A stretch of 64,000 nucleotides of DNA from an uncultured Candidatus Saccharibacteria bacterium. GTDB taxonomy: Bacteria > Patescibacteriota > UBA1384 > CAILIB01. A program made the translations under genes and the position numbers. Below, in pieces: positions 13,830-64,000 of this stretch. The stretch is taken from contig CAZQKK010000001.1 in NCBI GenBank assembly GCA_964593885.1, forward strand, positions 233,929 through 297,928, written 5' to 3'. The notes beneath the pieces were generated by a model that saw only the letters and a program-made list of their open reading frames with translations, was not told where the DNA came from and made no database searches. The stretch's first letter is position 1. Every line of letters starts with the position of its first letter.

Positions 13830-13835
13830 GATCAT

Positions 13836-21182: not shown

Positions 21183-21620
21183 ATTTTCAGTGTTTCTAAG
21201 CTTTACATCAAGATCTTGCATAATGGTCTTATCACCAAGTCTTGCTGCTAACGGCACGTAGTAGCTTAGTGTTTCAGCTATAATTCTTTTCTGCCTATTC
21301 AGTTCAAGGTGCGAAAGTGTTGAAAGGTTATGAATTCTGTCAGCCAACTTAACGTACGCAATGCGCTTATCATACTCAAAAAGAGTGCTGATTTTGTTTT
21401 GAGTTAACATATCAGCAACCTCCCTTTCCGCGTGTTCAACTTTTGTTGCACCATCAACCAGCATCGCCACTTCTTTACCGAATTGATACTCAATCTCCTC
21501 AAGTGTTCCTTCTGTATCCTCTACAACATCGTGTAATAGGGTGGCTACAACTGTATCTACTTCACAACCCCAGCAACACACTATCTCGGCCGCACTTACT
21601 AGGTGTGTCATATACGGCAC
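21174..21620 (-). CDS. Small HD-domain (p)ppGpp hydrolase (RelA/SpoT-type hydrolase domain only; SAH/Mesh1-like)
   Basis: LLHDVVEDT and KLADRIHNLSTL match RelA/SpoT HD-domain signature motifs. Confidence 0.7.
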   Translation of the reverse strand: MPYMTHLVSAAEIVCCWGCEVDTVVATLLHDVVEDTEGTLEEIEYQFGKEVAMLVDGATKVEHAEREVADMLTQNKISTLFEYDKRIAYVKLADRIHNLSTLSHLELNRQKRIIAETLSYYVPLAARLGDKTIMQDLDVKLRNTENLA

Positions 21621-21739
21621 CCCTTCTTGCCGCTTTTGATGACGGTGAACGTTGTTAGCATAATCTACCGCTCGTAAAATGCAGCTCTGCTCTGTAACTG
21701 AAAACCTTTCAAGGTAATGCTACTCTATTGTGAATAACA

Positions 21740-22219
21740 CTAGTACGCAACTACAAAAAATATAACGAGAAACGTACAAGCCAACACAAAGTTTGCGATG
21801 GTACCAGCAATTGCACCTGCCAATCCCGATAATCCAGCTTGTAAAGCATGGTGCATAGCTTTTATTTGCACTACCTCAGCAATGAATATCCCGAGGAATA
21901 GACCTATGAATGTCCCTACTAGCGGTAAAGCAAAGGTACCAATCAGCGAGCCAATAAATCCCCATAGTGCTGCCTGTTTTGTTGCACCACCAAACTTACT
22001 ACCAATGACCCCCGATGTATAGTCTATTACTAAGCTTACTAGGGCTATGGCAGCAAGCAGTAGTAACCAGCCAACTGTGAGACTTTGAAATTTTGTAAGG
22101 ATGGCATAGATAAGTGCAACAACAAACATGAATGGAATACCCGGAAAGATAGGGAGTAAGACGCCAATTAGTCCTATCCCCATCAGAACTATTACTAGAA
22201 TAGTAAGCACAATACTCAT
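21740..22219 (-). CDS. DUF456-like small polytopic membrane protein
   Basis: Start taken at the internal Met (MSIVLTILVIVLMGIGLIGVLLPIFPGIPF). Four TM helices. Confidence 0.45.
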   Translation of the reverse strand: MSIVLTILVIVLMGIGLIGVLLPIFPGIPFMFVVALIYAILTKFQSLTVGWLLLLAAIALVSLVIDYTSGVIGSKFGGATKQAALWGFIGSLIGTFALPLVGTFIGLFLGIFIAEVVQIKAMHHALQAGLSGLAGAIAGTIANFVLACTFLVIFFVVAY

Positions 22220-38020: not shown

Positions 38021-38095
38021 GCGGGTATCGTATAATGGTTATTACATCACCTTGCCATGGTGGAGATACGGGTTCGATTCCCGTTACCCGCTCCA
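38021..38095 (+). tRNA. tRNA-Gly(GCC): tRNA-Gly (anticodon GCC)
   Basis: GCGGGTA..TCACC-TTGCCAT-GGTGG..ACGGGTTCGATTCCCGT-TACCCGC-T-CCA. Confidence 0.8.
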
Positions 38096-38132
38096 AGATG
38101 AACTAACAATTCAAACGCGTGGAGCACCACAC

Positions 38133-38206
<74 letters not shown>

Positions 38207-38219
38207 ATAGTCCCCTCAT

Positions 38220-38438
38220 ATGCTTGCACTGCAAATTGTTCACATCATCATCTCAGCCCTCCTAGTAGCTAGCATCCTGCTCCAGCAACGAAGTAGCGGT
38301 TTGGGTGAAGCTTTTGGTGGCGATTCAACTGTTTTCAGTAGCCGTAGAGGTGTTGAAAAGATTCTCTACTACGCAACTATCGTCTTTGGCGTTAGTTTCG
38401 GAGTAATTGCTATCCTCCAGCTCATCATCGGCGGGTAG
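38220..38438 (+). CDS. secG: Preprotein translocase subunit SecG
   Basis: 72 aa, two TM helices flanking a Gly-rich loop (LLQQRSSGLGEAFGGDSTVFSSRRGVEKIL). Lies immediately upstream of a tRNA-Leu, as secG does in E. coli. Confidence 0.7.
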   Translation: MLALQIVHIIISALLVASILLQQRSSGLGEAFGGDSTVFSSRRGVEKILYYATIVFGVSFGVIAILQLIIGG

Positions 38439-38452
38439 GCAGAAAGGTTTCT

Positions 38453-38539
<87 letters not shown>

Positions 38540-38554
38540 CGACTCTTACAACCT

Positions 38555-38629
38555 GCCGAAGTAGCTCAGTGGTAGAGCAGTGGCCTGAAGAGCCTCGTGT
38601 CGTCAGTTCGATTCTGACCTTCGGCACCA
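38555..38629 (+). tRNA. tRNA-Phe(GAA): tRNA-Phe (anticodon GAA)
   Basis: GCCGAAG-TA-GCTCAGTGGTAGAGC..loop CTGAAGA..GTTCGATTC..CTTCGGC-A-CCA. One 28:42 mismatch in the anticodon stem. Confidence 0.75.
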
Positions 38630-38688
38630 TGAAAATTTGGTAGAATAGTTGAGAAAGTTTGATAGAAACAATCGCCCGGAGAAAGGAT

Positions 38689-38760
38689 TCTGTAAACTAT
38701 TGAGCGTACACCGTAGGTGTACATACAGATACTTCCACTAGCGATTTGTTTACAGAATAC
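38689..38760 (+). other. Structured spacer: 11-bp inverted repeat enclosing an internal 7-bp palindrome, between tRNA-Phe and tRNA-Val
   Basis: ATTCTGTAAAC ... GTACACCgtaGGTGTAC ... GTTTACAGAAT. Confidence 0.4.
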
Positions 38761-38768
38761 TTTCGTAG

Positions 38769-38844
38769 GGGCTCTTAGCTCAGTTGGTAGAGCGCCTCGT
38801 TTACACCGAGGATGTCAGAGGTTCGAGTCCTCTAGGGCCCACCA
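38769..38844 (+). tRNA. tRNA-Val(UAC): tRNA-Val (anticodon UAC)
   Basis: GGGCTCT-TA-GCTCAGTTGGTAGAGC-G-CCTCG-TTTACAC-CGAGG..AGAGGTTCGAGTCCTCT-AGGGCCC-A-CCA. Confidence 0.8.
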
Positions 38845-42043: not shown

Positions 42044-42613
42044 ATGCAAAAACGCGGCTTTACCCTCATCGAGCTCTTGGTTACCATCGTCATTATTGGT
42101 CTGCTCACTACCATCGCAACCACCAGTTTTTTGACAGCTCAGAGGAACGCCAGAGACAACGCACGAAGGACTTCTCTCACCGCCATTGGAGCCGCGCTAG
42201 AGGCATACAAGCTTGTTGAGGGAACCTACCCTGGTGTAGTAAACCCAACTACAAGTCTACCGAATGATCCCAATCATGTTTCAAACACAAAGTGTGCGGT
42301 AAATGACACCTACTACTACAACCCAAATGCAACAGGTACAAGCGTCTGCCCAGATGCATTTAAACCAACACCAAACTGGATTCCAAAGCTTGCAAAATAC
42401 CTCACGCCAACCCCTATCGAGAAGCGTTACCTAGACTCAACAGCGGGGACCACTGGTGATGGTGTATTCGCTACTGCCGTCGGTTTTGAGGGCACACCTA
42501 ATCTCAATACCAGAACCTACTCATACAAAAAGACAGCCACTGGCTACAACGCATACGTCAGAATTGAAGGTACTGCCTGTGGAGGTACCACCATCTGTTC
42601 AATTGGAAAGTAA
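42044..42613 (+). CDS. Type IV pilin / pseudopilin (prepilin-type N-terminal cleavage/methylation domain)
   Basis: MQKRGFTLIELLVTIVIIGLL class III signal (G-1, F+1, E+5). 5-bp gap from the Clp-like gene. Confidence 0.85.
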   Translation: MQKRGFTLIELLVTIVIIGLLTTIATTSFLTAQRNARDNARRTSLTAIGAALEAYKLVEGTYPGVVNPTTSLPNDPNHVSNTKCAVNDTYYYNPNATGTSVCPDAFKPTPNWIPKLAKYLTPTPIEKRYLDSTAGTTGDGVFATAVGFEGTPNLNTRTYSYKKTATGYNAYVRIEGTACGGTTICSIGK

Positions 42614-42614
42614 C

Positions 42615-43166
42615 GTGAAATTTCGCGGTTTTATCCTCATTGAGCTTCTGGTAACCATTAGCATTATTGGACTGCTCATTGCTGCGGCAGCATTTTCGCT
42701 CACCAAATCAAGGATAAGTGCCCGGGATGCAGCCAGGTTTTCTGATGGCATCACCATTAGTAAGGCTCTCGATAGCTATTCTGCTATTAACAAGGGAAGC
42801 TACCCCATGACACAAGTTGCAACTTGCACGGATACCCTGCAGAGCTCTCTTGCTAGCTACCTACCTAACGCGAAGGCTATCCCTCAAGACCCAAAGCCAG
42901 AGCTCTCAAGCGGTAACACCAACTTCCGCAAGTGCTACACCGTCTACCGTAATGAGACTGGCACACTGGGAACGGGTCCTGCTGATAAAGCAAAGTACAC
43001 CTACGTACTTGAGATTGGATCAGAGAACACCGCTCCTTCAGACCTCTCAAGCTACATGACTAAGGATGAAATGATGATTGCCGCTTCACCATGGATTCCT
43101 GAAGACAGCCTGGTGAGAACTCCCTACTACTACACTGGACCATACTGCGACACAACCTGCCCGTAG
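42615..43166 (+). CDS. Type IV pilin / pseudopilin, second copy (GTG start)
   Basis: VKFRGFILIELLVTISIIGLL prepilin signal beginning 2 nt after the previous stop. C-terminal Cys pair (CDTTC). Confidence 0.75.
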   Translation: MKFRGFILIELLVTISIIGLLIAAAAFSLTKSRISARDAARFSDGITISKALDSYSAINKGSYPMTQVATCTDTLQSSLASYLPNAKAIPQDPKPELSSGNTNFRKCYTVYRNETGTLGTGPADKAKYTYVLEIGSENTAPSDLSSYMTKDEMMIAASPWIPEDSLVRTPYYYTGPYCDTTCP

Positions 43167-51135: not shown

Positions 51136-52110
51136 GTGGATAGCCTTGTTGCTCACCTTCGTGAGCATAGCCGCTTCATCCTCGTATCTCATGTCAGGCC
51201 TGATGGGGATGCGGTAGGGTCGCTCCTAGGTCTCTCGTACGGCCTCCACCAACTGGGAAAGGAGGTGACTCCTGTTCTTGTTGATGGTGTACCGAAAGCT
51301 TTCACGTTTTTGACTGATCGAATCCTCCCTGTACAAGAAGTACTTCCTAAGCCAGATACTGAGAGCATCTGCGTGCTCCTTGATGCCGCTGATGCCTCTC
51401 GGTGTGGTGATAGGGAAACCCTGCGCGAGTACGCAAATCGTCAGCGACTCATGGTTATCGATCACCACCCACTTGGTGATCTAGAGCCGAAAGCCCTTGC
51501 CTACTTTCACAACCTGGAAGCCTCCTCTACCTCAGAGATGGTTTACCATATTCTCGTTCAGCTTGGGTGCAGGATTACCCCGCAGATTGCGACATGCCTC
51601 TACTGTGGGATGTACACAGACACATCAGGCTTTAGGCACAGCAACACGACAACTACCACACTTGAAGTTGCCGCCGAACTCCTCAAACGGGGAGCAAACT
51701 TACGAAAAATTGTTGCTGAAATAGGTCAACAGAAGAGCATCTCAAGGTTACGCCTTACAGGTATTGCTATGCGGCGTGTCATGGTGAGCAAACGTTGGAA
51801 TACTGCATACTCGGTAGTGCAGCACGCTGATATTCTGGAGAACGAAGCAACTCCCGATGACGTAACGGGGATTGTGAACCAGGTGAGCGTCTTACCTGGT
51901 GTATCAAGCTTCATGATGCTCACCGAGGAGAAACCAGGAGTAATTAAGGGATCACTCAGAGTACCAGATGGAACTAAGCACAAGATTTCAGTGAGACCGC
52001 TTGCTAAGCTACTTGGCGGTGGTGGTCACAGCAGTGCGGCTGGGTTTGAAATCACCGGTTCGCTCAACCATACTGATGGGGCACATGGGGGGAGTTGGCG
52101 AGTAGACTAG
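51136..52110 (+). CDS. DHH-family phosphoesterase (NrnA-like), second paralogue
   Basis: DHH motif ILVSHVRPDGDAVGS, DHHA1 motif GGGGHSSAAGFE. Confidence 0.7.
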   Translation: MDSLVAHLREHSRFILVSHVRPDGDAVGSLLGLSYGLHQLGKEVTPVLVDGVPKAFTFLTDRILPVQEVLPKPDTESICVLLDAADASRCGDRETLREYANRQRLMVIDHHPLGDLEPKALAYFHNLEASSTSEMVYHILVQLGCRITPQIATCLYCGMYTDTSGFRHSNTTTTTLEVAAELLKRGANLRKIVAEIGQQKSISRLRLTGIAMRRVMVSKRWNTAYSVVQHADILENEATPDDVTGIVNQVSVLPGVSSFMMLTEEKPGVIKGSLRVPDGTKHKISVRPLAKLLGGGGHSSAAGFEITGSLNHTDGAHGGSWRVD

Positions 52111-52193
52111 CCGCGGTGGTGGAATGGTATACACAGGGGACTTAAAATCCCCAGAGGCAACTCATGCGGGTTCGAGTCCCGCCCGCGGTACCA
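52110..52193 (+). tRNA. tRNA-Leu(UAA): tRNA-Leu (anticodon UAA)
   Basis: GCCGCGG..GGGGA-CTTAAAA-TCCCC, long variable arm, GGGTTCGAGTCCC, CCGCGGT-A-CCA. Confidence 0.8.
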
Positions 52194-52238: not shown

Positions 52239-52532
52239 CTAGCGCGGACGCTTGAGGAAGCTTCCTGCAAACACTGAAAGTAGGATTCCAGTTCCAAGGC
52301 AGCTTGCTGCTGTCCAGAGTGCCGGAACCGCATACAGTGTCAGGTTGTCAGTCAGTGAAAAGAATAGGGCGACTAGGAGGAATAGAAAACCGAATAGCGA
52401 AATGCCACCTGCAATCAGAATGAGCACCACACCAGCGGCAAGCTTCTTGAGGTATGGAGCGAGGGGTGAAACCGCACGCTTAACCGAGTACTCAATCTGC
52501 TCCTCTAAGAGTGCACCAAAAAATTTGAACAC
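52239..52532 (-). CDS. YqjE-like (DUF1469/holin-X-like) small membrane protein
   Basis: 97 aa, two TM helices. Sits directly downstream of a DUF883 gene, as in the E. coli yqjD-yqjE pair. Confidence 0.45.
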   Translation of the reverse strand: MFKFFGALLEEQIEYSVKRAVSPLAPYLKKLAAGVVLILIAGGISLFGFLFLLVALFFSLTDNLTLYAVPALWTAASCLGTGILLSVFAGSFLKRPR

Positions 52533-52536: not shown

Positions 52537-52848
52537 TTAGTCTCGTGACTTTCTGATCAAGAAACCGAGGAGGAGACCAACGGCACCTGCAACTGCTGCA
52601 ACCTGCCAAGGATTCTCTTCTGCATAGGCTTGCGTCTTATCAGCTGCAAGCTTTGCTTTCTCTCTTCCCATTTCACCGTAGTGTCGAGCCTTGCTCATGA
52701 GGTGCATCATTTTTTCACGAGCATCTTCTACTTCTTCCTCAAATAGCTCTTCACCTTTTTCCACACCCTTACCCACAAGTTGAGAGACATCCCTACGTAG
52801 TGCCTCCAGGTCTCGCTTTAGGTCCTTGAGTTCTGTGTTTCGTTCCAT
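52537..52848 (-). CDS. DUF883 (ElaB/YqjD/YgaM-like) ribosome- and membrane-associated protein
   Basis: Coiled-coil N-terminus. C-terminal ENPWQVAAVAGAVGLLLGFLIRKSR is the characteristic DUF883 TM tail. Confidence 0.65.
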   Translation of the reverse strand: MERNTELKDLKRDLEALRRDVSQLVGKGVEKGEELFEEEVEDAREKMMHLMSKARHYGEMGREKAKLAADKTQAYAEENPWQVAAVAGAVGLLLGFLIRKSRD

Positions 52849-52905: not shown

Positions 52906-53418
52906 ATGCAGCTTCCTTTCACTCTCTTTGAGCCGTATACTAGTCATATGCAGTTTCAGGTGCCGCAAAACATCGCAATGGAGGATCGAATTGTTGGTCC
53001 GCTAACGGTGATACAGTTCGTCATCGTCGTAGTTGGTGGTGGAATCGCGTTTTTCATCTTCAACCAAAACTCACTCCCACCTGTTCTCACTAGGAGCGTA
53101 GCCGGAAGCATCGCCCTCCTCACCGCAATCATTGCAATCGGGAAATTCAATGACCAGCCGATGTACCGGTTTTTCAAGTACATCATTGCATTTGTTATCA
53201 CGCCTAAAACCAGGGTTTGGCACAAGAACGGTGGAGAGGTAAACCTGATCAAGCCGAGCGAAGCTAAAGATGAGGGTTCGCACCTCCACGCTCCAAAACG
53301 GGTTTCTAAGGCCGACATTGCTCGCCTAGCAAGCGTACTCGATAGTAGGGGAAGAGAAGGAAGTCTACCCCGAGTTACATCCCCTAGTTCACCTCAAAAG
53401 AGCAGCAAGAATCCATGA
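52906..53418 (+). CDS. PrgI-family / VirB3-like type IV secretion membrane protein
   Basis: Two TM helices (LTVIQFVIVVVGGGIAFFIF, SIALLTAIIAIG) then KYIIAFVITPKTRVW. Position immediately upstream of the VirB4-like genes. ATGA overlap with the next gene. Confidence 0.5.
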   Translation: MQLPFTLFEPYTSHMQFQVPQNIAMEDRIVGPLTVIQFVIVVVGGGIAFFIFNQNSLPPVLTRSVAGSIALLTAIIAIGKFNDQPMYRFFKYIIAFVITPKTRVWHKNGGEVNLIKPSEAKDEGSHLHAPKRVSKADIARLASVLDSRGREGSLPRVTSPSSPQKSSKNP

Positions 53419-54251
53419 GCACAAACGTTCACTCAACTCAGGATCACCTCCCCATCGCTGGAATCCAGGATGGCGTGGTTATTATGAATGACGGCAGCCT
53501 CCGTGTGGTTCTGAAAGCCGAACCTGTCAACTTTGAGCTGAAATCTGAGAACGAGCAGAATGCCATCATCTACAGCTACCAGTCGTTCCTCAACTCTCTA
53601 GACTTCCCTATCCAAATTCTCATTCAGTCTAAGAAGCTTGATCTCGAGCAGTACCTCATCAGGATGCAAGAGAACGAGAAGCTCCTCACCAACGAGCTCC
53701 TCAAGATTCAGATTAACGATTACACAGGATTCGTGAGACGCTTGATTAGTGTTGCCAACATCATGGCAAAGCGTTTTTACGTAGTGATCAGCCACAGCAT
53801 CGTGAACAAGCACACGAGCATGAACCAGATTAACTCGCTCATCCCCCACAGGCCAACCGGGCCACTCTTAGAGCAGAATGAGTTTGACCTCATGAGATCA
53901 GAAGCTTACAACAAGGCGGGAATTGCTGCGGGAGGACTGAGCAGGCTAGGTGTTAAGGCAAGTGCCCTAGAAACCCAGGAACTGATTGAGCTCTTCTATG
54001 CCATCTACAACCCGGATGTGGCAGCTGAGGAGCGTCTGACAAGCCTCCAGAACCTCAGCACCGGTATCGTAACCTCACCCGAGGCTGAAGCACTTGCGGT
54101 AGAGCAGATTATTAACCAAGCAGACGCCCTTACAAACGCTACTATGCCGCCAGCCCCTGAAGCAACACCTAGAGAAGTACCAGATGAGATGTTGGTAGAT
54201 ACCATGCCAGGCGACACACTGCCAATTGAGAACCAAGAACCGGAGGTTTAG
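53415..54251 (+). CDS. VirB4-family N-terminal region (first part of a VirB4-like protein interrupted by an in-frame TAG)
   Basis: N-terminus IAGIQDGVVIMNDGSLRVVLKAEPVNFELKSENEQNAIIYSYQSFLNSL resembles the start of Gram-positive VirB4 homologues (TraE/PrgJ/TcpF type). Same reading frame as 54255-56051. Confidence 0.45.
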   Translation: MSTNVHSTQDHLPIAGIQDGVVIMNDGSLRVVLKAEPVNFELKSENEQNAIIYSYQSFLNSLDFPIQILIQSKKLDLEQYLIRMQENEKLLTNELLKIQINDYTGFVRRLISVANIMAKRFYVVISHSIVNKHTSMNQINSLIPHRPTGPLLEQNEFDLMRSEAYNKAGIAAGGLSRLGVKASALETQELIELFYAIYNPDVAAEERLTSLQNLSTGIVTSPEAEALAVEQIINQADALTNATMPPAPEATPREVPDEMLVDTMPGDTLPIENQEPEV

Positions 54252-54254
54252 CAC

Positions 54255-56051
54255 ATGAAATTTCCATTCTTCAATAAATCTAACGGTGATGAGGCGGTAA
54301 TTGCCCAGCAAGACGCTGCCCTTTCTGCATACCAAGAAGGTCTCACCACTACCCGTGACATCATTGCCCCTTCTGATTTCCTGGTAACTACCAACTACAT
54401 CCAGCTTGGGACCTACTTTGTGAGGACCATTTTCGTCTACACCTACCCAAGGTTCCTCAACACCAACTGGCTCTCACCAATCATCAACTACGACTTCACG
54501 ATGGACATAAGCATGTTCATCATTCCTGAGGACGGTAGACAGGTAATGGAGTCGCTCAAGCGAAAGATGACCCAGCTTGAATCAACTAGAATGGTTGAGC
54601 AGGAGAAGGGATTAGTGCGAGACCCTGAGCTTGATACCGCCATCCACGACATCGACGAGCTCCGCGAGAGCCTCTCCCAGGGGCAGAACCGCCTCTTCCA
54701 GTACTCGCTCTACTTCACCATCTACGCAAAGAGCCTTGAGGAGTTGAACACCTTGAGCAAACAGCTTGAGTCTACCCTAGGAGGATCGCTCATTTACACC
54801 AAGGAGGCGGTTGTCCAGATGGAGCAAGGATTCAATTCCACCATTCCAATCATGTCTGATCAGCTGAGTATCCTGCGTAACCTGGACACCGCCTCACTCT
54901 CAACAACCTTCCCCTTCTCCTCAGCTGAGCTCACCTCAGACAACGGCATCCTCTACGGCATTAACCGTCACAACGACTCGCTCATTCTGTTTGATAGGTT
55001 CAACCTAGAGAACGCAAACTCTGTGGTGTTTGCCACATCTGGCGCTGGAAAGTCCTACTTCGTGAAGCTTGAGATTCTGAGGTACCTGATGCTCGGAACC
55101 GACGTGGTAATTATCGACCCAGAAAATGAGTACCAGAAACTAGCCGAGGCTGTGGGAGGTAACTACCTCGAGATTAGCCTCAACTCTGCCCAGAGAATCA
55201 ATCCTTTTGATCTCCCCGTTACTAGCCACCCAGAGGATGAGGCTGAAGATCTGCTTAGGTCTAACATCACCACCCTCCACGGTCTCATTAGGTTGATGGT
55301 AGGAGGACTTACCCCTGAGGAAGATGCATTGCTTGATAAGGCCCTCTACGAGGCATACGCGCTTCGCGATATCACCTCTGACCCCTCAACCCAGAGGAAT
55401 ACTCCCCCAGTTATGTCAGACCTGATTGCAGTTCTTGCAAACCTTAGGGGTGCCGAGAACCTCATTCTTCGCCTAGGCAAGTACGTTGAGGGAACCTTTG
55501 CCAACCTGTTCAACCAGCCTACCAACTTTAAGCTAGACAGCGGCCTCGTAGTCTTTTCAGTACGAGACCTTGAAGAGTCTCTTCGCCCCATTGCCATCTT
55601 CATGATCCTCAACTACATCTGGAATAACGTGAGGGCTGAGATGAAGCGAAGGCTCATGGTAGTTGATGAGGCGTGGTGGATGATGCAGTACGAGGACTCT
55701 GCCAGGTTCCTCTACGGCCTAGCCAAACGTGCCCGTAAGTACTTCCTTGGCCTCACCATCATTTCGCAGGACGTTGAAGACTTCCTTGCCAACAAGTACG
55801 GGAAGGCAGTGGTATCAAACTCGGCTATGCAGATCCTCTTGAAGCAGAGTACCTCGTCAATTGACGTGATTAGCCAGGTATTCAACCTCACTGAGCAGGA
55901 GAAGTACCTCCTCATTAACGCCTCGGTAGGGGAAGGGCTCTTCTTTGCTGGTCTCAACCATGTGGCAGTAAAGATTACCGCCTCCTACACTGAGGATCAG
56001 ATCATTACCTCAGACCCAAAGCAGCTCTTAGCAATGCGTTCAGCCTCGTAA
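54255..56051 (+). CDS. VirB4/TraC/CagE-family type IV secretion ATPase (ATPase part)
   Basis: IAPSDFLVTTNYIQLGTYFVRTIFVYTYPR domain, Walker A VVFATSGAGKSYFVK, Walker B RLMVVDEAWWMM, ISQDVEDF. GGAGG RBS 9 nt upstream. Confidence 0.8.
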   Translation: MKFPFFNKSNGDEAVIAQQDAALSAYQEGLTTTRDIIAPSDFLVTTNYIQLGTYFVRTIFVYTYPRFLNTNWLSPIINYDFTMDISMFIIPEDGRQVMESLKRKMTQLESTRMVEQEKGLVRDPELDTAIHDIDELRESLSQGQNRLFQYSLYFTIYAKSLEELNTLSKQLESTLGGSLIYTKEAVVQMEQGFNSTIPIMSDQLSILRNLDTASLSTTFPFSSAELTSDNGILYGINRHNDSLILFDRFNLENANSVVFATSGAGKSYFVKLEILRYLMLGTDVVIIDPENEYQKLAEAVGGNYLEISLNSAQRINPFDLPVTSHPEDEAEDLLRSNITTLHGLIRLMVGGLTPEEDALLDKALYEAYALRDITSDPSTQRNTPPVMSDLIAVLANLRGAENLILRLGKYVEGTFANLFNQPTNFKLDSGLVVFSVRDLEESLRPIAIFMILNYIWNNVRAEMKRRLMVVDEAWWMMQYEDSARFLYGLAKRARKYFLGLTIISQDVEDFLANKYGKAVVSNSAMQILLKQSTSSIDVISQVFNLTEQEKYLLINASVGEGLFFAGLNHVAVKITASYTEDQIITSDPKQLLAMRSAS

Positions 56052-56055
56052 ACCT

Positions 56056-56496
56056 ATGCGCAAACTGTTCCTCTCACTCCTTCTAGCACTGTGCATTCTT
56101 GCACCATTTAGTGGGTCGGTTACTAGTGTACGTGCAGAAAAAATAGAGGAGGTAAGCTTAGGTAGGGACAAAAACGGGAACCCAACAAGGGTGGAGAAGA
56201 ATTGCTACTGGGATAAAGATACGAAGGGTATCCTCGTTGACTACAAAGTTGTTCAGGGAACAGCCCCAGGTAGTGAAAAGGTCTTCACGTGCTACCTGAG
56301 GGTTTTCCTAGCCGGAAACAGCGCACTCATCGTCACTGTTGCGGTGATTATTGTGGTGTTTTCAGGCATCCAGTACATGCTTGCCCTTGGAAACAGTGGC
56401 ACCCAGGCTAAGGCGAAGCAACGCGTGGTAAGCGTTCTTACGGGAGTTGTTTTTCTAACCCTCATCAGGTTCTTCCTAACGATAATCAAGGGGTAG
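56056..56496 (+). CDS. VirB2/TrbC-like pilin family protein (T4SS-linked paralogue 6)
   Basis: Signal peptide. Two TM helices separated by a Lys-rich loop (ALGNSGTQAKAKQR). Confidence 0.5.
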   Translation: MRKLFLSLLLALCILAPFSGSVTSVRAEKIEEVSLGRDKNGNPTRVEKNCYWDKDTKGILVDYKVVQGTAPGSEKVFTCYLRVFLAGNSALIVTVAVIIVVFSGIQYMLALGNSGTQAKAKQRVVSVLTGVVFLTLIRFFLTIIKG

Positions 56497-56497
56497 C

Positions 56498-57757
56498 ATG
56501 GAGCCTTCCCGCGCCAAAGCAAACCCATTCAAGAAAAAGCAGCAGCGCTCAAGGGTTCTCCTGATGACACTGGCGGCGGCCTCTCTCCTTGTAATTTCTG
56601 GAGGATTCTACCTCTACCTACGATCTCAAGAAACCGGCATTCTCATCTTAGACAGTACTAAGAACCTGGTGGTAAGCCTTAATGGCAGGCAGGTGCAAAC
56701 CCAAACTCAATCACGAGGTATCTTCGTCCCGGTGTACTCTGGCACCTATCGCCTACAAATTGACAAGCCAAACTACCAACCATTTATCACCGATGTCACC
56801 ACTGAGCCTGGGGATATTGCTGAGATTAGGCCGGCATTTACCCTAGTTCCCAGCTTAAAGGAGGCAGTCGGAGATGCTGTTGATTTTGTTCAACCTTCAT
56901 TTGATGAGAAGTACGTCTACTACCTGGGCGATTTTAGGCAGCGCCTCTTCAGGTACGATGTAGCCGCCCAGCAGAGTACGCCACTCACCATAGAGGCACT
57001 CAACGGTGTGAGGGATGTCCAGTGGGGTGGAAACCCTGAAGTTGCCCTTATCGTTCAGGCTGATGGGACCTACCTCCATGAGGTTCCCACCTTTGACTTT
57101 AAGCACCAGATCTTTGCAAAGGTTGCCGGCCCTGAAGTTGTATCACCCATTTGGGATCCAATGAATTCAGAACGTCTTGCTGCTGCCTACATTACACCTA
57201 GAGGAGAGCGGTCTCTCATCACCTCTGATAAGAGATTTACCTCAATTAGCAGACTGGCTAGCCTTGATAGCATTCCTAACCCAGATATCACCTGGTCTCC
57301 TGATGGGAATCTTCTCCTCCTGAGAGGGGTGGACAGCAACCCACAGCGAAATAACCTCTGGCTCTACCGTATGGCCACTGCTGAGTTCACCCAGCTCACC
57401 TCAACTGGAGGTGTTACTTCTGCCTCATTCAACCCAACCTCAGAAAAGGTACTCTACGATACGAGCCTCTCTTCGGGAAATCAGCGCGCCGTTATCACCA
57501 TTGCCGATCAGAGCACCTCACAGCTACCGCTAGATGGCGTAGGTAGTGCGATCGCCTGGAAGGATGCAGGTAGCTACTTCGCCCCAAGCTCTGGCGGTTC
57601 TCTCAACCTTGTTACCCTACAGGGAGCGGTTACCACCTTCCCGATTACCATTCCTACACAGGAAGAAATCACATCACTGACCTACGTAAGCAGCTTAAAG
57701 CGTCTGGTGTTTGCCACCTCAACTGCCGTTTACAGCATAGATCTAGAGAGTAACTAG
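56498..57757 (+). CDS. Membrane-anchored protein with PEGA-like domain and TolB-like beta-propeller repeats
   Basis: N-terminal TM. PEGA-like segment LNGRQVQTQTQSRGIFVPVYSGTYRLQIDKPNY. Repeated ..SPDG../..DP.. blade motifs (ITWSPDGNLLLL). Confidence 0.4.
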   Translation: MEPSRAKANPFKKKQQRSRVLLMTLAAASLLVISGGFYLYLRSQETGILILDSTKNLVVSLNGRQVQTQTQSRGIFVPVYSGTYRLQIDKPNYQPFITDVTTEPGDIAEIRPAFTLVPSLKEAVGDAVDFVQPSFDEKYVYYLGDFRQRLFRYDVAAQQSTPLTIEALNGVRDVQWGGNPEVALIVQADGTYLHEVPTFDFKHQIFAKVAGPEVVSPIWDPMNSERLAAAYITPRGERSLITSDKRFTSISRLASLDSIPNPDITWSPDGNLLLLRGVDSNPQRNNLWLYRMATAEFTQLTSTGGVTSASFNPTSEKVLYDTSLSSGNQRAVITIADQSTSQLPLDGVGSAIAWKDAGSYFAPSSGGSLNLVTLQGAVTTFPITIPTQEEITSLTYVSSLKRLVFATSTAVYSIDLESN

Positions 57758-57758
57758 T

Positions 57759-59801
57759 ATGCCAGTTCTTGAACCACCTACTGACGACTTGACTAGGCGA
57801 GTAACTAGTGACGAGCTATCCCCAGATGGCCTAGATTTGGATACTGGAATTAACCCCCTAGTAGACCAGCCGCTGTTTATTGGTGAAAACAGAGCTCCTG
57901 GTATCCAACCCAACCCAGCTAACAGCAACTCAGCCGATCAACGTGAGAAGAGTTTCCGCGACGAGTACCGCGATCGGAAACAGGCAAAGAAGGATGGCAC
58001 AGAGCCTCGCGGTAAAGAGCTCCCTTCTACAAAGAACCAGCACGCAATTACCCCTCAAGATCAGCAGCTCATTAGTCAAATTGAGGAGCTGGTAAAGAAC
58101 AAAAAGTACGGCCGTGCGCTCGCCATGATTGCTGGCAACCCAAAGGTGAGAGAGCTGATGCGTAGCAAGGTGAGCGAGATTAGGAACCAGATGGCCCTTG
58201 AGGCTGCCAAGGCTAGGGTGAAGATGCTCATCAAGAACGCAATCAGGAGTGCTGTAATGGACATCTTAGTTGCGACCTCACCGTGGTGGGAGATTATCCT
58301 CGTGGTGATTCTCTGTATCATCGCTCTCGTGATAGGAATTGCCATCATGATGAGTAGACCAGTTGATAACCCTCCAAGCGACGTTCCTCTGGGCATAACT
58401 AACGGTAACGAAACTGGGGTTTACCTGAGCAGTAGCATCATGACGCCAAGCATGAAGGTTAGTGACAACTCTGGGAAAACTAATGCGAGAACGCGAGAGC
58501 TCCACCTTGAAACCACCGCTGGTGGTTGGAGCCCAGAAGAGGCTGTAGATGCTCGAGGAAGCAACTGGTGTATTCCTGGAAAGGGATGCCTATCCATGGG
58601 AAGCATTCTTGGCGGGAGCGTTACTGAAGAAGACATGGAGAGCTACGCAACTGCGCGTTTTCCCTACGTGTATGGCTTTGACTTTGACTACCGTGGATCT
58701 AAAGATGGAGCGCCAAGGCAAGGTTGGGGAGAGATGAAAGACTACGCCGGGAAAAAGATCATAATGTTCAATCCAAAGACAAAGAAAGCAGTTGTGGCTT
58801 TGGCTGCAGAATTTGGACCTGCACCATGGACCGGAGTCTGCGCGGATCGAGATTCTGGATCAAATAACTCATCGAATAAGCGCATTACCGTTCCGTGCAG
58901 TGAGCAACGAACATCATGGAATGCCCGTGATGTCGTTGCAGGCCCAAAGAGCCGCACTATACCCAAAGACCTCCGTGCATACGACATCACCCCTCCTGCC
59001 GGCTACTCTGGCCGTATTGCAGGAGGAGAGCCAAAACTTGCTGCAAAAATCGGGATTGGTACTGACCAAGTGGTGATCATCGGTTACGCTGCCGATCAGA
59101 GTTTAAAACCCGGCACCGTTCTCACCATCAAAGATTCTGACATCCTTACCGTAGGAGGCGGTGAGAAACGTGTTGCAGGTGTCCTTCCGGTACCTGGAGT
59201 CTCCGAGGGTCAAAAGAGTGACTGTGGTGATGCTAGTGGTGTCATGACGGCTCTCTACTACGCATCAGATAAGGGTGCAAAAACCCTCACCTACGACCAG
59301 CTCCCACCGGGAATAAAGAACCAGGTTGAGGTGGTTCCACCAGATTTGCAGGCAACAGCTGGTAGGTTTAAAACAAAATCTACCAACGGTGCAGGGGTTT
59401 GCTTGAGTCCTAACTTCATCAACCAGATAAGCGGTTCAGGTGGCGATTGGCAATTTGTCAGCAAAGTCACTGAACCTAAGGGCTTTGAAAAAGCAGTCAC
59501 ATCTATAAAAAATGGAGATCCTGTCGTCATGTATACCCGCGCAGGTGGGTTCTACGGAAACACACAACACATCTTTGTTCTCGTCGGTTACGATGAAACA
59601 ACCAAAGAGTTTATTGTAAACAACCCAACCTGTAATGGTGCAGCTGCTAATGGTGGAAAGTGTACCCCACCAGAGGTAAATGTTGGAATTAAGGGTGGAG
59701 AAGCAGGAGCACCGAGACTGTCATTTGAACACCTCTTTAACTACCAGGGATCTGGGACGTACGGTCATTCTCTAATCATTCGTAAGAAATGGTGGCAGTA
59801 A
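57759..59801 (+). CDS. Membrane-anchored protein with C-terminal papain-like (peptidase C39-like/CHAP-like) domain; candidate cell-wall hydrolase of the secretion apparatus
   Basis: Central TM (IILVVILCIIALVIGIAIMM). Candidate Cys (GKGCLSMGSILGG) and C-terminal His motif HIFVLVGYDETTKEFIVNNP as in C39-like peptidases. Confidence 0.4.
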   Translation: MPVLEPPTDDLTRRVTSDELSPDGLDLDTGINPLVDQPLFIGENRAPGIQPNPANSNSADQREKSFRDEYRDRKQAKKDGTEPRGKELPSTKNQHAITPQDQQLISQIEELVKNKKYGRALAMIAGNPKVRELMRSKVSEIRNQMALEAAKARVKMLIKNAIRSAVMDILVATSPWWEIILVVILCIIALVIGIAIMMSRPVDNPPSDVPLGITNGNETGVYLSSSIMTPSMKVSDNSGKTNARTRELHLETTAGGWSPEEAVDARGSNWCIPGKGCLSMGSILGGSVTEEDMESYATARFPYVYGFDFDYRGSKDGAPRQGWGEMKDYAGKKIIMFNPKTKKAVVALAAEFGPAPWTGVCADRDSGSNNSSNKRITVPCSEQRTSWNARDVVAGPKSRTIPKDLRAYDITPPAGYSGRIAGGEPKLAAKIGIGTDQVVIIGYAADQSLKPGTVLTIKDSDILTVGGGEKRVAGVLPVPGVSEGQKSDCGDASGVMTALYYASDKGAKTLTYDQLPPGIKNQVEVVPPDLQATAGRFKTKSTNGAGVCLSPNFINQISGSGGDWQFVSKVTEPKGFEKAVTSIKNGDPVVMYTRAGGFYGNTQHIFVLVGYDETTKEFIVNNPTCNGAAANGGKCTPPEVNVGIKGGEAGAPRLSFEHLFNYQGSGTYGHSLIIRKKWWQ

Positions 59802-61036
59802 TGAGGTCAGAAGCAACGTATACTGGTGGCATGAGACGTGTCTCTGGAAATACCACTCTCATCGTTGCCGCAGTTGTTGTGGCTGTAGTCCTCATAGTAG
59901 GGGGTGCTTTTGTGGTTGGCATTGGGAGCAATCCTGCAAACCCAGTTCGAGACCAGCAAGACCCAAAACCTGTAGACCTCACTAACTCAGAAACCCAAGC
60001 CCTCTCAAAATCGCTCAGTGCAAAAATTGATAGCTGTGCCGCAATCAGAGAGAACGAGAAGTTCCTTACTGAACTCTCAGACAGCCTCACTGACGAGGGG
60101 AGTATCGGCAAGTACATCACCACCAACGTGACAGATAAGGCAAAGCGCGATGAACTCAATACCCTTCGCCAAGAAGCAAACGCTGCCCTCCAACTCCTCA
60201 TCACAAAGGGTGCTGAGTGTAGTAACAGTAAAACCGCTACTAACCTTGATAAAGAGGTGAGTGACCTCTGGGCAACTACGAGGCAAAAGATCAGCATCCT
60301 CCAGGCTGCTCTCGTGAAGTCACTTGCTGGAAAGTACTACTTCCCAGGTGTTGAGCAGGGAGCAGATAACTACTGTCAGCAGGCTGCAGCAGCTATGGTA
60401 GCCCTTACCTACCTCAGCAACTATGGTGCCACCCCTATAACCCAGCTAGATGCAGCTACTCTTCCAGCGAGCCTCCAGGAAGCTCTCGGTGGTAACTCTA
60501 GTGTAGGTGAATACCCTGCAGGATGGGCGAAGTTCAATAATGATCCTGAAAAAGTTCGGGCCGCGGTTGCCAACCGTGCCAGTATTGCATGGTTTACAAC
60601 CCCAAAGAATCCTAAATCTTGTCCAGTTGGTGACATGCACTTTGTGGTACGGCTATTCAAATCCATTGGTGCACCCATGCCAGATGACTGGGCCTACATT
60701 TCAGATGACGGATACCGAGGAATTATCACACCGGACTACAAGACTTCAGATCCTGGCATTAGAGATAAAGTGTATGCAGCTGTAAAGCTTTCACTCACAG
60801 CAGTCCCTCCTGATCCAGTTGTTGCTGACTTTACCAACCTTGGAGCCTGTAGCTACGGTCACAATATTCCACTATTCATCTTTAACGGAACTCGTTTTAT
60901 TACCAATAACCCAGGTAAAGGAAATGTAAAGTACAACCAAACAACCTGTGGGAGGAAAGAGCTCTCAGAGGAAAACGTAAAGAAGTTCGCTCGAATGGTT
61001 GTGCGTAAGAAGTACCTAACTCAAGTTGGGCTCTAG
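59789..61036 (+). CDS. Second membrane-anchored papain-like (C39-like) peptidase-domain protein
   Basis: TM (TTLIVAAVVVAVVLIVGGAFVV), Cys motif YCQQAAAAMVALTYL, His motif GDMHFVVRLF. Overlaps the upstream stop; the true start may be 59801 or 59831. Confidence 0.4.
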   Translation: MVAVMRSEATYTGGMRRVSGNTTLIVAAVVVAVVLIVGGAFVVGIGSNPANPVRDQQDPKPVDLTNSETQALSKSLSAKIDSCAAIRENEKFLTELSDSLTDEGSIGKYITTNVTDKAKRDELNTLRQEANAALQLLITKGAECSNSKTATNLDKEVSDLWATTRQKISILQAALVKSLAGKYYFPGVEQGADNYCQQAAAAMVALTYLSNYGATPITQLDAATLPASLQEALGGNSSVGEYPAGWAKFNNDPEKVRAAVANRASIAWFTTPKNPKSCPVGDMHFVVRLFKSIGAPMPDDWAYISDDGYRGIITPDYKTSDPGIRDKVYAAVKLSLTAVPPDPVVADFTNLGACSYGHNIPLFIFNGTRFITNNPGKGNVKYNQTTCGRKELSEENVKKFARMVVRKKYLTQVGL

Positions 61037-61038
61037 CC

Positions 61039-64000
61039 ATGAAGCTCACTACGTCTCCACAATTCTCAAGGTTTATCCAAGGAGTGAAGCAGCTCACACT
61101 CCTCCTCTTGATTGAGTTGATGGTGATTGAGCCGGCGCTTTTTGCATTCACTGCAACCAGTCTCCCAGGATTCCCGCAGGTTGCCCAAGCTGAAGAGACT
61201 ACTGCCAAGCCATACTATGGAAGTGCTGAGTGTTACAACACCTTCCTGAACGGGGACGAGGTGGGATCGCCTGGAAGCCTCACGATTACCAATCCGGATA
61301 CGGTTGTTCCTAATGACCTAGGGTATGTTCCTATTGATCAACTTACCATCGTCAACCCAGATTCGAGAGAGATAGTTGACTACACCCTCAACCTATCAGC
61401 TATCCTCACCGACGAGACCTACCCAATCGCCACCAGAGATAGGATTGGTAACCCCGAATACATTCACAGCGTTATTGATGAACTAGGATCAGGGGTTTTC
61501 TACGTTGAGGTTGGCGAAAACCCAGTAGGCAACCTCCCCGCTAACACGAAATGGGTGGTTACCTGTGACAACCTCTCTAGCGAGAGGTATGGTGATAGAA
61601 CTCAGGCCATCATTGATGCCTTTGACCCTCTCTTACCCATTTCACCAGGAGCATCTAACCTGGTAGATCTCTTGAGAGATCCATCGCCTAAGGTTACCTT
61701 TGTAAACCCAACTGATAAATACGCTCTCCTTGGTGAAACTTGTAACGGGGGACTAATTAGAAAACCAAGGTCACAGTGGACATCAGAGGATGTTGTATGT
61801 CCTGGCTTCAAAACTGAGGATGATGTTTTTCAGAATGGGGTATGGGATGCACCAAAGGTAGATACCAGAGTTCTTGCCACCCTCACCTACCTTGTTACCC
61901 CTATTGAACAGGGGGGTGCTGGACGTGAGTTCATCAGGGTGAAGAAGCTCATCCAGTATGATCCTTCAAATCCACTCACCCAGCCAGTGGTTGCCCCAAC
62001 ACCAGATCCTTCAGCAGACCCAGAACAGGAAGCTGAGGACTTAGATAAGATCTTAGATTCCGAGTTTGATGAGAGTGCACCTGTCACCCAAGACGAGGAG
62101 CAAACTGCTTTCCCAAGCTCCTACTACATCAACCCAAACGACCCTCCTCACCTTCCTAAGACCATTTCGAGCTCGGTAATGATCGATCAAATTGATAGGT
62201 TTAGGGTTACAACAAAAATTGAGCAGAAACGGCTGTTTGGAAACAACACCATTGAGTACAAAGTCCAGCCGGCTATGCCCGTCGATGTATCATGGCAGTC
62301 CGATGCAGGCATGCAGAAGGATCCTCCACCTGATTTTTCGAAGCTATCGATGCTCGAGAGTTCAAGGTTCCTCACCAACGCTGCCATTGTAGAGCTTCTC
62401 AACCAGTACGGTTTAGGCGACCTAGAGATCAATGTTAGTGAGACTGAGCTCAATAGCTTGGGCGATATTGCCCTTGTCGTGGGGGAGTCGCTCCTCGAAC
62501 AGCTCCTTGGCTCTCCGCGTGGATCCATGAACGGCTACAACCTCCTCTCCACGCTCAAGAGTATCGGTCTTGCGTACCTAGAGCAGAACCTCGGTCTTGT
62601 CCCAGGTTCCCTTGCTGATATGAACCCACTTGATAAGGTAGATGAAACTGCAGACTTCAGTAACCTCACTCTCAGTGTAGGGAGATCTACCGTTGAGTAT
62701 GTCCTCGGTTTTCCTAGAGGATCGCTCCGTACGAACACGGGTACCTCTAATGAACTGTTGGAGAGTGTGGGCAGGCGGTACCTTGAGAAACAGGTGTTCC
62801 AAGTTTCTGATGGCACCCTTCTAGAGACGCCTGGGTACCCTCTCAAAACCATTGGAGATCTCTTAGAGCGGCTAGGTGAGGGACGGATTGAGCAGGTCTT
62901 CAAGCTTCCAAAGCAGAGCCTCAGGAAGCCAACCTATGACAACAGTGAAACTGGAAAGAGCTTTAGGCAGAGCAGCTTTAAAGCCACCCTCATCTTCCCT
63001 AAGCTTGATGGAGTAGCCCAGGACGAGAAGATGTTTGATATGGCTGACTACGTGAGCGGCAAGCTAAGCCTCGTGCACGTACCTTACAGTGAGGTAGATG
63101 CAAATGGGAACATCGTCCCTTCAAGTGGAAGGAACATGTACGGCTTCACAGAGAATGATTTCAACTTCCCGAGCATCAACATTAGTACCTTTGACGAAGG
63201 TAGCCTCAAGAAGTTTAAGCAAATCGTAGGCAGCAGGGCAATTGAGACCAGCCTTGGAGTATATAGGAGGGAAGGCTCAAACCAGAGCCTCCTGAATGGC
63301 GATAGCAACCTCGCCCCTGTAAAGGAACTCAAGATAAATGGGATCACCTACAATGCCCGCTACCGTCCATTAAGTGAAGTAGGAGCCTGCGGTAAAGAAC
63401 GCTGTAACGGTGACGACGGCACCTCCCCATCAATCTCGTGGTGCGACAACAAGGCACTTTCCTACGTTCGTGAAGGTTCTGAGAGTAAGTGGGTGGCTAG
63501 TCCAGGTGATGGCGACACTATTGGAACGCCGAGCAACCCAAACACCGCTGCAAATATCCGCAGAACTATTGCAGGACTTCAATCAGGATGGGGAAGCCTG
63601 AACAACAACCTGAACTACAGCGATCACTCCTGTGAGAAAGACACCTCATTTGAGTGGACAGATCCTTTCTTGGGCGAAGTTAAATCTGTTGTCCTCAACA
63701 CAGTGCAGGTGAACCAAACGGTCTTTGTGAACCAAGATAATGCCCCGAAGCGTGAGAACTTCTACAACGATGGTGGAACAAGAGGTGGGGAAGATAGCCC
63801 TCAGGCACGCTACAACACTGCCACCTTGCTCTACTACAACCTGCCAGAGAACCACAAGGATGCACCAATCAACACCATCCCTACTTCGGCACACGTCACC
63901 GAAGATGGTCAAACATCTAATCCGGATGAGGTAGGATCCCCACCTAAAACGGTAGCGCAAATTCTCAACACCCTCTCGCTTGGTGGGAAGGGCGGGAAAG
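61039..64000 (+). CDS. Very large secreted/surface protein (partial, >980 aa, continues beyond the window)
   Basis: Signal peptide MKLTTSPQFSRFIQGVKQLTLLLLIELMVIEPALFAFTATSLPGFPQVAQA. I read frame 61039 codon by codon and found no stop before the window end. Only short ORFs on the other strand. Confidence 0.55.
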   Translation, partial: MKLTTSPQFSRFIQGVKQLTLLLLIELMVIEPALFAFTATSLPGFPQVAQAEETTAKPYYGSAECYNTFLNGDEVGSPGSLTITNPDTVVPNDLGYVPIDQLTIVNPDSREIVDYTLNLSAILTDETYPIATRDRIGNPEYIHSVIDELGSGVFYVEVGENPVGNLPANTKWVVTCDNLSSERYGDRTQAIIDAFDPLLPISPGASNLVDLLRDPSPKVTFVNPTDKYALLGETCNGGLIRKPRSQWTSEDVVCPGFKTEDDVFQNGVWDAPKVDTRVLATLTYLVTPIEQGGAGREFIRVKKLIQYDPSNPLTQPVVAPTPDPSADPEQEAEDLDKILDSEFDESAPVTQDEEQTAFPSSYYINPNDPPHLPKTISSSVMIDQIDRFRVTTKIEQKRLFGNNTIEYKVQPAMPVDVSWQSDAGMQKDPPPDFSKLSMLESSRFLTNAAIVELLNQYGLGDLEINVSETELNSLGDIALVVGESLLEQLLGSPRGSMNGYNLLSTLKSIGLAYLEQNLGLVPGSLADMNPLDKVDETADFSNLTLSVGRSTVEYVLGFPRGSLRTNTGTSNELLESVGRRYLEKQVFQVSDGTLLETPGYPLKTIGDLLERLGEGRIEQVFKLPKQSLRKPTYDNSETGKSFRQSSFKATLIFPKLDGVAQDEKMFDMADYVSGKLSLVHVPYSEVDANGNIVPSSGRNMYGFTENDFNFPSINISTFDEGSLKKFKQIVGSRAIETSLGVYRREGSNQSLLNGDSNLAPVKELKINGITYNARYRPLSEVGACGKERCNGDDGTSPSISWCDNKALSYVREGSESKWVASPGDGDTIGTPSNPNTAANIRRTIAGLQSGWGSLNNNLNYSDHSCEKDTSFEWTDPFLGEVKSVVLNTVQVNQTVFVNQDNAPKRENFYNDGGTRGGEDSPQARYNTATLLYYNLPENHKDAPINTIPTSAHVTEDGQTSNPDEVGSPPKTVAQILNTLSLGGKGGK

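Follow-up and report, generated by a model that had tools for sequence, protein, structure and literature searches.

What kind of machine is encoded at the right-hand end of this stretch, and what might the cell use it for? The 64,000-nucleotide stretch of DNA analysed here (the window) comes from an uncultured Candidatus Saccharibacteria bacterium, and its end (nt 52906–64000) is occupied by a run of genes in which homologs of type IV secretion system (T4SS) proteins stand beside predicted wall-cutting enzymes, a beta-propeller protein and a giant exported protein. A first interpretation made from the letters and open reading frames (the sequence-only reading) had taken this run for a minimal, Gram-positive-style T4SS, chromosomal and possibly non-conjugative, with parts that could belong to an undescribed apparatus. 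The results given below indicate that the region is, with good probability, the core operon of the chromosomal, vertically inherited T4SS of Patescibacteria (the Candidate Phyla Radiation), a non-conjugative machine for interaction with a host.

Organisation of the module

The eight open reading frames (ORFs) are all on the + strand and nearly contiguous (Table 1), as the sequence-only reading had described them. The spacings from gene 1 to gene 8 are, in order, −4, +3, +4, +1, +1, −13 and +2 nt, and gaps of 1 to 4 nt or short overlaps throughout make the eight genes one tightly packed unit and imply a single transcript. Promoter and terminator scans returned fewer sites than were found in shuffled sequence, and were uninformative. 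Two starts may differ from those listed: the true start of gene 1 could be nt 52948, and gene 7 probably begins at nt 59831, which matches its orthologs.

Table 1. Genes of the T4SS module and related pilin genes elsewhere in the window.
Feature	Position (nt)	Strand	Size and evidence
Gene 1, PrgI/VirB3-like	52906-53418	+	170 aa; two transmembrane (TM) helices; PF12666
Gene 2, TrsD/TraC-like, free-standing VirB4 N-terminal domain	53415-54251	+	278 aa; acidic Pro-rich tail
Gene 3, VirB4-family ATPase, C-terminal P-loop part, CD1110/MPF-FATA type	54255-56051	+	598 aa; NF045971
Gene 4, VirB2-like T4SS pilin	56056-56496	+	146 aa; PF18895 below cut-off, jackhmmer-linked paralogs
Gene 5, single-pass membrane protein, PEGA/prealbumin-like beta-sandwich plus beta-propeller	56498-57757	+	419 aa; AlphaFold2 model, Foldseek
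Gene 6, membrane-anchored C39_2-like cysteine peptidase	57759-59801	+	680 aa; PF13529
Gene 7, membrane-anchored divergent C39_2-like cysteine peptidase	59789-61036	+	415 aa; jackhmmer from gene 6
Gene 8, giant exported protein, first 987 codons	61039-64000	+	frame open to window end, no stop
VirB2-like pilin paralog 1 of array	8852-9169	+	PF18895, 38.5 bits
VirB2-like pilin paralog 2 of array	9102-9809	+	PF18895, 24.6 bits
VirB2-like pilin paralog 3 of array	9806-10252	+	PF18895, 15.6 bits
VirB2-like pilin paralog 4 of array	10330-10734	+	PF18895, 38.5 bits
Fifth, detached VirB2-like pilin paralog	13794-14207	+	PF18895, 47.4 bits (cut-off 26.6)

The PrgI, TrsD and VirB4 core

The first three genes identify the system. 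The PrgI protein matches PF12666 in Pfam at 36.5 bits (cut-off 27), its TM segments lie at residues 33–51 and 60–78, and in related loci its orthologs directly precede the TrsD-like gene. The TrsD-like protein aligns with VirB4 and TrsD models at the first ~135 positions only (~6–140; 6.9e-8 against the NCBIfam TrsD model), and its orthologs are annotated with PF26593 (TraC-like). This gene adjoins VirB4 in nearly all of 80 related loci searched by tblastn, the exceptions being loci that are cut at VirB4. The VirB4 protein matches NF045971, the CD1110-type model, at 365.9 bits (cut-off 325; model positions 184–732) and PF19044 (P-loop_TraG) at 101.6 bits, and both its Walker A (SGAGKS) and Walker B (LMVVDE) motifs are intact. 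The core of the module is a Gram-positive-style, MPF-FATA-related T4SS with a split VirB4. The sequence-only reading was therefore right in its general classification of the system, and in assigning these genes to a PrgI/VirB3-like protein and a VirB4 in two parts.

Pilins inside and outside the module

Gene 4 had been called a VirB2-like pilin, and this identification was borne out by the topology of its product (a signal peptide, an extra segment of ~55 residues and two hydrophobic helices) and by jackhmmer searches from it, which retrieve paralogs that in some cases pass the PF18895 cut-off; its own score is 24.2 bits. Four paralogs form an array ~43 kb upstream of virB4, and together with the fifth they lie about 40–45 kb from that gene. 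Each of the four array pilins has two C-terminal hydrophobic helices, and all four were recovered by jackhmmer from the module pilin. This brings the PF18895-type genes in the window to six, three of them above the cut-off (Table 1).

Five extra pilin genes so far from the module show that the system is split over the chromosome. The description as a minimal, eight-gene system consequently does not hold, the more so as most of the more distant relatives have a VirB6-like gene and in relatives an ATPase gene comes after the giant gene (both described below). The pilin array is preceded by a gene for a 483-aa lipoprotein-like protein (nt 7404–8855) without a Pfam match.

Relatives and chromosomal context

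VirB4 was used to scan one genome per GTDB species, and the best 80 genomic matches, at 51–84% identity, were examined (related loci are cited below by L numbers). All came from Patescibacteria-type metagenome-assembled genomes, except for one record labelled Pacearchaeota. The records of the nearest relatives (78–84% identity) bear the titles Candidatus Berkelbacteria or Patescibacteria group, and those at 51–59% identity are mostly titled Saccharibacteria.

The gene order ComM (− strand), 137-aa protein, S1, 156-aa protein, DHH, PrgI, TrsD, VirB4, pilin, propeller protein, C39 peptidase, ~405-aa protein and giant protein is identical in three independent assemblies (L082, L083/L084 and L087). 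In L087, the most distant of the three, the propeller protein is only 47% identical to that of the window. The S1 and DHH neighbours are kept across the closest clade (tblastn, 80 loci). Since the same order and the same flanks persist down to 47% protein identity, the module is vertically inherited and not an integrative and conjugative element (ICE). A comparison of gene order had been suggested as a check of the sequence-only reading, and the order proved to be conserved, upstream neighbours included.

The other 53 kb of the window carry genes for RecA, FtsK, YchF, a ClpB-like ATPase, PNPase, S1, ComM, MurB, two DHH phosphoesterases and 12 tRNAs. Integrase, relaxase and coupling protein genes were not found in the 64-kb window, and no relaxase, VirD4, VirB6 or VirB11 domain was detected among its ORFs of at least 300 aa, in agreement with the sequence-only reading; the one FtsK-like ATPase encoded there carries a gamma domain and is the chromosomal FtsK. 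With no relaxase or coupling protein nearby, the module is probably not a conjugation operon, and the housekeeping genes that flank it in conserved synteny uphold the view that it is chromosomal.

Between the DHH gene and PrgI lie a tRNA-Leu(taa) gene (nt 52110–52193) and two small minus-strand membrane genes (nt 52239–52532 and 52537–52848). The latter are Phage_holin_3_6-like and DUF883, and are conserved in L082 and L083.

Most of the more distant relatives (VirB4 at ≤68% identity, with enough upstream sequence) carry a VirB6-like gene of 600–1,250 aa and 6–11 TM segments upstream of PrgI. It was seen in the range L007–L081, and one example (L008:4811-7543) matches TrbL at 32.6 bits. The clade of the window has S1, DHH and the tRNA at this position, and the only polytopic proteins encoded in the window are a Na+/H+ exchanger, a PMT-type glycosyltransferase and a histidine kinase.

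Comparison with known type IV secretion systems

Systems of this composition, with PrgI, TrsD, VirB4 and VirB2-like pilins and without a relaxase, have been published for Patescibacteria (PMC10633639, PMC12102498, PMC12857230), so that the apparatus as a whole cannot be called undescribed, and the window adds no new kind of system. According to Quinonero-Coronel et al. 2025 (PMC12102498), VirB4 is present in 2,417 of 3,035 Patescibacteria assemblies (~80%) and forms a clade nested in MPF-FATA. TrsD-like and PrgI-like genes adjoin it, the VirB2-like pilins are encoded by single genes or by arrays of 2–11, relaxases are almost never present, and the loci are chromosomal. The published phylogeny of Patescibacteria VirB4 follows class-wise vertical inheritance, and a 2025 review of T4SS lists the Patescibacteria system as a new member of the superfamily.

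The closest functional reference is Southlakia epibionticum ML1, in which Wang et al. 2023 (PMC10633639) showed by transposon sequencing (Tn-seq) that the bacterium cannot grow on its host without the cluster SEML1_0006-0019, which is thus essential. The tables of that study list PrgI (0010), TrsD-like (0009), VirB4 (0008) and VirB6-like (0011, 0013) proteins, six pilins, two wall-hydrolase proteins (0007, and 0006 with its lysozyme and cysteine-proteinase domains) and a PEGA protein (0005). The locus of the window shares with the S. epibionticum T4SS (SEML1_0004-0019) the order of PrgI, TrsD-like and VirB4 genes, the presence of several sequence-divergent VirB2-like pilins, and an exported PEGA protein and wall hydrolases with papain-like domains downstream of VirB4. 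As in S. epibionticum and the Patescibacteria VirB4 clade at large, the locus is chromosomal and has no relaxase or coupling protein. It differs from S. epibionticum in the absence of the VirB6-like gene(s) ahead of PrgI, in pilins that are mostly detached (~43 kb off), in a PEGA module that is fused to a beta-propeller, in hydrolases without a detected lysozyme domain, and in a last gene whose product, of ~2,900 aa, belongs to an unannotated family. The proposal that the accessory genes are lineage-specific thus survives for the giant protein and the PEGA-propeller fusion, and fails for PEGA and cysteine-proteinase/lysozyme proteins as such, which are already part of the S. epibionticum cluster.

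With the Gram-positive MPF-FATA systems the locus has in common CD1110 as best VirB4 model, a PrgI-type VirB3, the lack of an outer-membrane core and a separate TrsD-like N-domain protein, as in pGO1. A papain-like (clan CA) wall-hydrolase partner is also shared, analogous to the CHAP domain of PrgK and TraG. Unlike those systems, it has no relaxase, type IV coupling protein (T4CP), PrgH/VirB6, PrgL/VirB8 or PrgB adhesin; it does have VirB2-like pilins, which the Gram-positive systems are without; and it is a vertically inherited, housekeeping-like chromosomal cluster and not a mobile element.

Gene 5, a PEGA module fused to a beta-propeller

The sequence-only reading had proposed a membrane protein with PEGA and beta-propeller domains. 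Matches to Pfam profiles are weak, and the support comes from an AlphaFold2 model (mean predicted local distance difference test score, pLDDT, 77.5) with a TM helix, a beta-sandwich at residues 47–110 and a propeller of about seven blades at residues 129–415. The best Foldseek matches in the PDB are Lp49 (3bws; an Ig-plus-propeller antigen) and TolB. In iterative searches, the TM plus sandwich module matched proteins of ~200–310 aa downstream of VirB4 in Saccharibacteria-named loci, which in size and position correspond to the PEGA protein SEML1_0005, and TM plus propeller proteins without the sandwich were found in other lineages. The occurrence of sandwich-only and propeller-only versions elsewhere makes gene 5 a fusion of two recurrent modules of the T4SS neighbourhood. 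The fusion itself appears to be lineage-specific and not described before.

Genes 6 and 7, predicted wall hydrolases

Both genes had been assigned to papain-like peptidases. Gene 6 matches Peptidase_C39_2 (PF13529) at 36.9 bits (cut-off 24). Its product has a cytoplasmic helical N-terminal region, a TM segment at residues 179–197, a conserved mid-domain at ~250–460 that is common to multi-domain wall hydrolases (e.g., in L033), and a C-terminal C39_2-like domain. Gln485, Cys489, His604 and Asn622/623 are conserved among the orthologs that retain this domain. A profile search of the PDB with the peptidase alignment gave no match. In the closest relative, the ortholog (P0004 / L083:10001-11983) keeps the N-terminal two thirds and ends in a different, unannotated domain without the C39 catalytic Cys, a recent domain swap.

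Gene 7 has no Pfam match. It was found by jackhmmer from gene 6 in two pieces, residues 163–244 around the Cys (5e-14) and 341–394 around the His (3e-8), the E-values being those of a small local database. Gln190, Cys196, His358 and Asn375/376 are conserved in four orthologs. The recovery in two pieces and the retention of catalytic-type residues indicate that gene 7 is a divergent paralog of the gene 6 domain with an insertion of ~100 aa, which supports the earlier assignment.

No SLT or lysozyme domain was detected in either protein with Pfam. The same slots in relatives are filled by a variety of hydrolase domains: Phage_lysozyme2 fused to C39_2 in the Saccharibacteria-named loci L065, L067 and L074; SLT with Amidase_3 in L007; Amidase_3 in L009; M15_4 with 3D in L014; M23 in L013, L033 and L071; and NlpC/P60 in L005 and L089. 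Wall hydrolases in equivalent positions support a VirB1-like wall-cutting role for genes 6 and 7, and it is plausible, as had been proposed, that they are analogues of VirB1/PrgK and encode peptidoglycan hydrolases.

Gene 8 and the gene that follows it

The sequence-only reading had noted a protein of more than 980 aa with a signal peptide that runs off the window. The 987 codons present represent about one third of the gene, and the remainder was completed from orthologs in relatives. The ortholog at L083:13215-21959 is complete with 2,914 aa and is 93% identical across the 987 residues of the window; orthologs in close relatives are of 2,912–2,928 aa. A word-indexed homolog search with the giant fragment gave no match, and an exhaustive HMMER search retrieved 131 representative clusters, mostly of 1,400–3,300 aa; for 93 of these, E is ≤1e-10. 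Members of the family have an N-terminal signal or TM segment, 1,200–3,000 TM-free residues, a hydrophobic cluster and a tail of 120–220 aa. The protein of the window fits this plan, with a signal peptide, a conserved N-domain (~270–640), a long variable region, a C-terminal TM cluster and a tail of ~190 aa. Two regions, ~270–640 and ~2390–2735, are conserved family-wide. Short repeats ending in motifs of the type LG-(L/F)-P-x-G-(S/T)-L, for which no counterpart is known, recur along the giant protein (residues ~500–700) and are conserved in the family consensus; one of them (LGLPPGT) lies just ahead of the C-terminal TM cluster.

No Pfam match was found in 19 diverse members, and PDB profile searches with the N-domain and with the C-terminal region were likewise negative. 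A first metagenome scan with the C-terminus found nothing, and an 18-sequence alignment proved too divergent as a query; with a 3-sequence alignment, three loci were retrieved. Every locus with VirB4 at ≥60% identity and sufficient downstream sequence has the giant gene after the module; the gene was not detected in loci at ≤59% identity, most of them labelled Saccharibacteria. It appears to represent a lineage-specific, undescribed family.

The N-domain contains the motif S-x-H-x-x-G-Q-A-x-D in 69 of the 131 family representatives, which we take to resemble the H-x6-D zinc site of LAS/VanY peptidases. Alignment by hhalign places it on the H-x6-D of the M15_4 domain of L014, a weak match (probability 4.6%, P 0.0087), and no conserved downstream His was found in the N-domain as a third ligand. 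In the clade of the window, GGAGR stands in place of GGAGH, and SSVMIDQID in place of the GQAVDISEID of most members with an intact motif. With both His and Asp replaced, the copy in the window would be at best a degenerate LAS-like version, and the LAS/M15-like nature of the N-domain is offered as a lead, not a finding.

The giant protein was also considered as a candidate for VirB6 or extended VirB6, and was rejected. It has one C-terminal hydrophobic cluster (2677–2724, two or three helices), where five or more helices are required, it has no Pfam match, and L008 encodes both it and a TrbL/VirB6-positive protein.

In relatives (L083/L084, and the JGI contig L089), the giant gene is immediately followed by one for an ATPase of 506–519 aa with T2SSE and MshEN domains (L083:21975-21983, L084:17582-17590, L089:11022-12581). 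The ATPase gene lies 16 nt after the giant gene in L083/L084 and overlaps it in L089. It scores 426–446 bits with the GspE and PilB models and 45–63 bits with VirB11, and an assignment to VirB11 (of ~330-aa type) was rejected on length, the MshEN domain and these scores. In L089 it closes the block, has no adjacent PilC or PilM, and is followed by opposite-strand genes, with dnaA 7 kb downstream. From these relatives, the same ATPase gene is expected a few kb past the end of the window.

Proposed function and alternative readings

In the proposed mechanism, PrgI, TrsD and VirB4 would form a membrane ATPase platform that assembles VirB2-like pilins, drawn from the six paralogs of the window, into a pilus or conduit. 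Both peptidases, anchored in the membrane, may act like VirB1/PrgK, making local cuts in the peptidoglycan of the cell's own wall, and perhaps that of the host, to let the machine cross. The PEGA-propeller protein could be a wall-spanning scaffold or a wall-binding subunit. The giant protein, presumably exported by the Sec pathway and held by its C-terminal TM segments, might extend from the surface as a host-contact or structural element. By analogy with S. epibionticum, the apparatus would serve an epibiotic lifestyle, through delivery of proteins to a host bacterium or uptake of material from it, and not plasmid conjugation.

Several observations weigh against this interpretation. VirB6-, VirB8- and VirD4-like genes are all missing from the 64-kb window, so that a complete channel cannot be shown here, and the module pilin falls just short of its Pfam cut-off. 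Structure prediction, which the sequence-only reading had recommended, served for the PEGA-propeller protein and was unusable for the 680-aa peptidase of gene 6 (pLDDT 46.7). Gene content and conservation come from the locus itself; the roles inferred for genes 5–8 rest on position, domain content and analogy. The lineage is uncultivated, and both essentiality and an epibiotic lifestyle are extrapolated to it; even for the cultivated model, a 2024 perspective described the role of the Patescibacteria T4SS as 'completely unknown'.

A more elaborate version is that the T4SS of this Berkelbacteria-like clade has been rebuilt. The adjacent VirB6 would be gone, and the giant protein with a degenerate LAS-like wall-binding domain, the PEGA-propeller protein and the PilB/GspE-type ATPase would together make a new extracellular conduit or host-docking structure powered by two different secretion ATPases, an undescribed hybrid of T4SS and type IV filament. 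Taken jointly, these steps are unlikely to hold.

The T4SS could instead import DNA in the manner of Helicobacter ComB or the Ced system of the Sulfolobales, exporting nothing and feeding host DNA or nucleotides to a cell unable to make them. ComB and Ced are likewise VirB4-based machines without a relaxase or coupling protein, the very genes missing here, and are proposed to work in the import direction; the VirB4 of the window gives weak matches to the archaeal import ATPases CedB (42.8 bits) and CedD. ComM is encoded ~4 kb upstream, in a gene order that relatives share, and the window also encodes RecA; in addition, nucleotide or DNA import has been raised in the literature, and T4SS loci stand beside comF, recG and radA in class ABY1. 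However, the Ced scores fall far short of the thresholds of these models (700 and 600 bits), a conjugative VirB4 gives the best match, the accessory genes differ from those of ComB and Ced, and there is no visible link to a DNA channel, the module having no DNA-binding or ComEC-like gene. In S. epibionticum, deletion of comEC ends competence and not viability, while the T4SS is essential, which argues that the essential role of the T4SS is not exerted via the known uptake channel. DNA uptake is therefore considered unlikely.

A little less probable again is that genes 1–4 alone are the T4SS and genes 5–8 a separate envelope or adhesion operon next door. Genes 5–8 match no curated T4SS component model, the giant family is without a known domain, L004/L005 and the window differ in how their pilin, hydrolase and propeller genes are ordered, and the giant gene is followed in relatives by one for a PilB/GspE-type ATPase and not for a VirB11. 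Against such a division stands the continuous close spacing, with its implication of one transcript. Furthermore, despite the local shuffling, hydrolase, PEGA/propeller and giant genes remain downstream of VirB4 at 60–84% VirB4 identity, and in S. epibionticum the PEGA protein and the VirB4-adjacent hydrolases share the Tn-seq essentiality calls of the core genes.

The weakest alternative, a part or remnant of an ICE inserted at the upstream tRNA-Leu gene, which lies ~700 bp from PrgI and is accompanied by a VirB4 closest to an ICE-type model (CTn2 CD1110), is largely refuted by the absence of integrase, relaxase and T4CP genes from the window, a GC content that is even across the module border with no compositional break, flanks and gene order retained among distant genomes, and the published class-wise phylogeny. 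Of the two outcomes that the sequence-only reading had named as counting against it, neither was observed: matches to VirB3, VirB4 and VirB2 are present, and no ICE with a canonical transfer operon was seen.

The Patescibacteria T4SS is essential in the sole model tested, and ranks among the foremost candidates for the means by which these ultra-small bacteria exploit their hosts. PrgI-TrsD-VirB4 and the pilins are constant across classes, and so are a PEGA-type module and anchored hydrolases of the wall whose chemistry is interchangeable. Specific to the lineage are the propeller fusion, the unannotated family of giant surface proteins, the PilB-type ATPase that trails it and a VirB6 that has been lost or has moved elsewhere. 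This division provides concrete candidates for determinants of host contact and specificity, and the giant family, with its 131 representative clusters, merits a structural look.

Other features of the window

Two prepilin-type genes with an N-terminal methylation motif (nt 42044–42613 and 42456–43166) follow the ClpB-like ATPase gene. They are type IV pilus components or type II secretion system pseudopilins, separate from the T4SS. Five tRNA genes are clustered at nt 38021–38841, a stretch without long ORFs. A low-GC stretch at nt 18000–22000 (0.40–0.41 compared to ~0.49) carries the gene for a membrane histidine kinase (nt 18131–19573) and one for a 585-aa protein with a weak match to the prenyltransferase alpha-alpha-toroid (nt 19425–21182). 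Near the left end of the window, nt 777–3176 encode an exported metalloprotease of 799 aa that resembles gametolysin/M11 and has a long linker rich in Pro and Thr as well as a TM anchor at its C-terminus.

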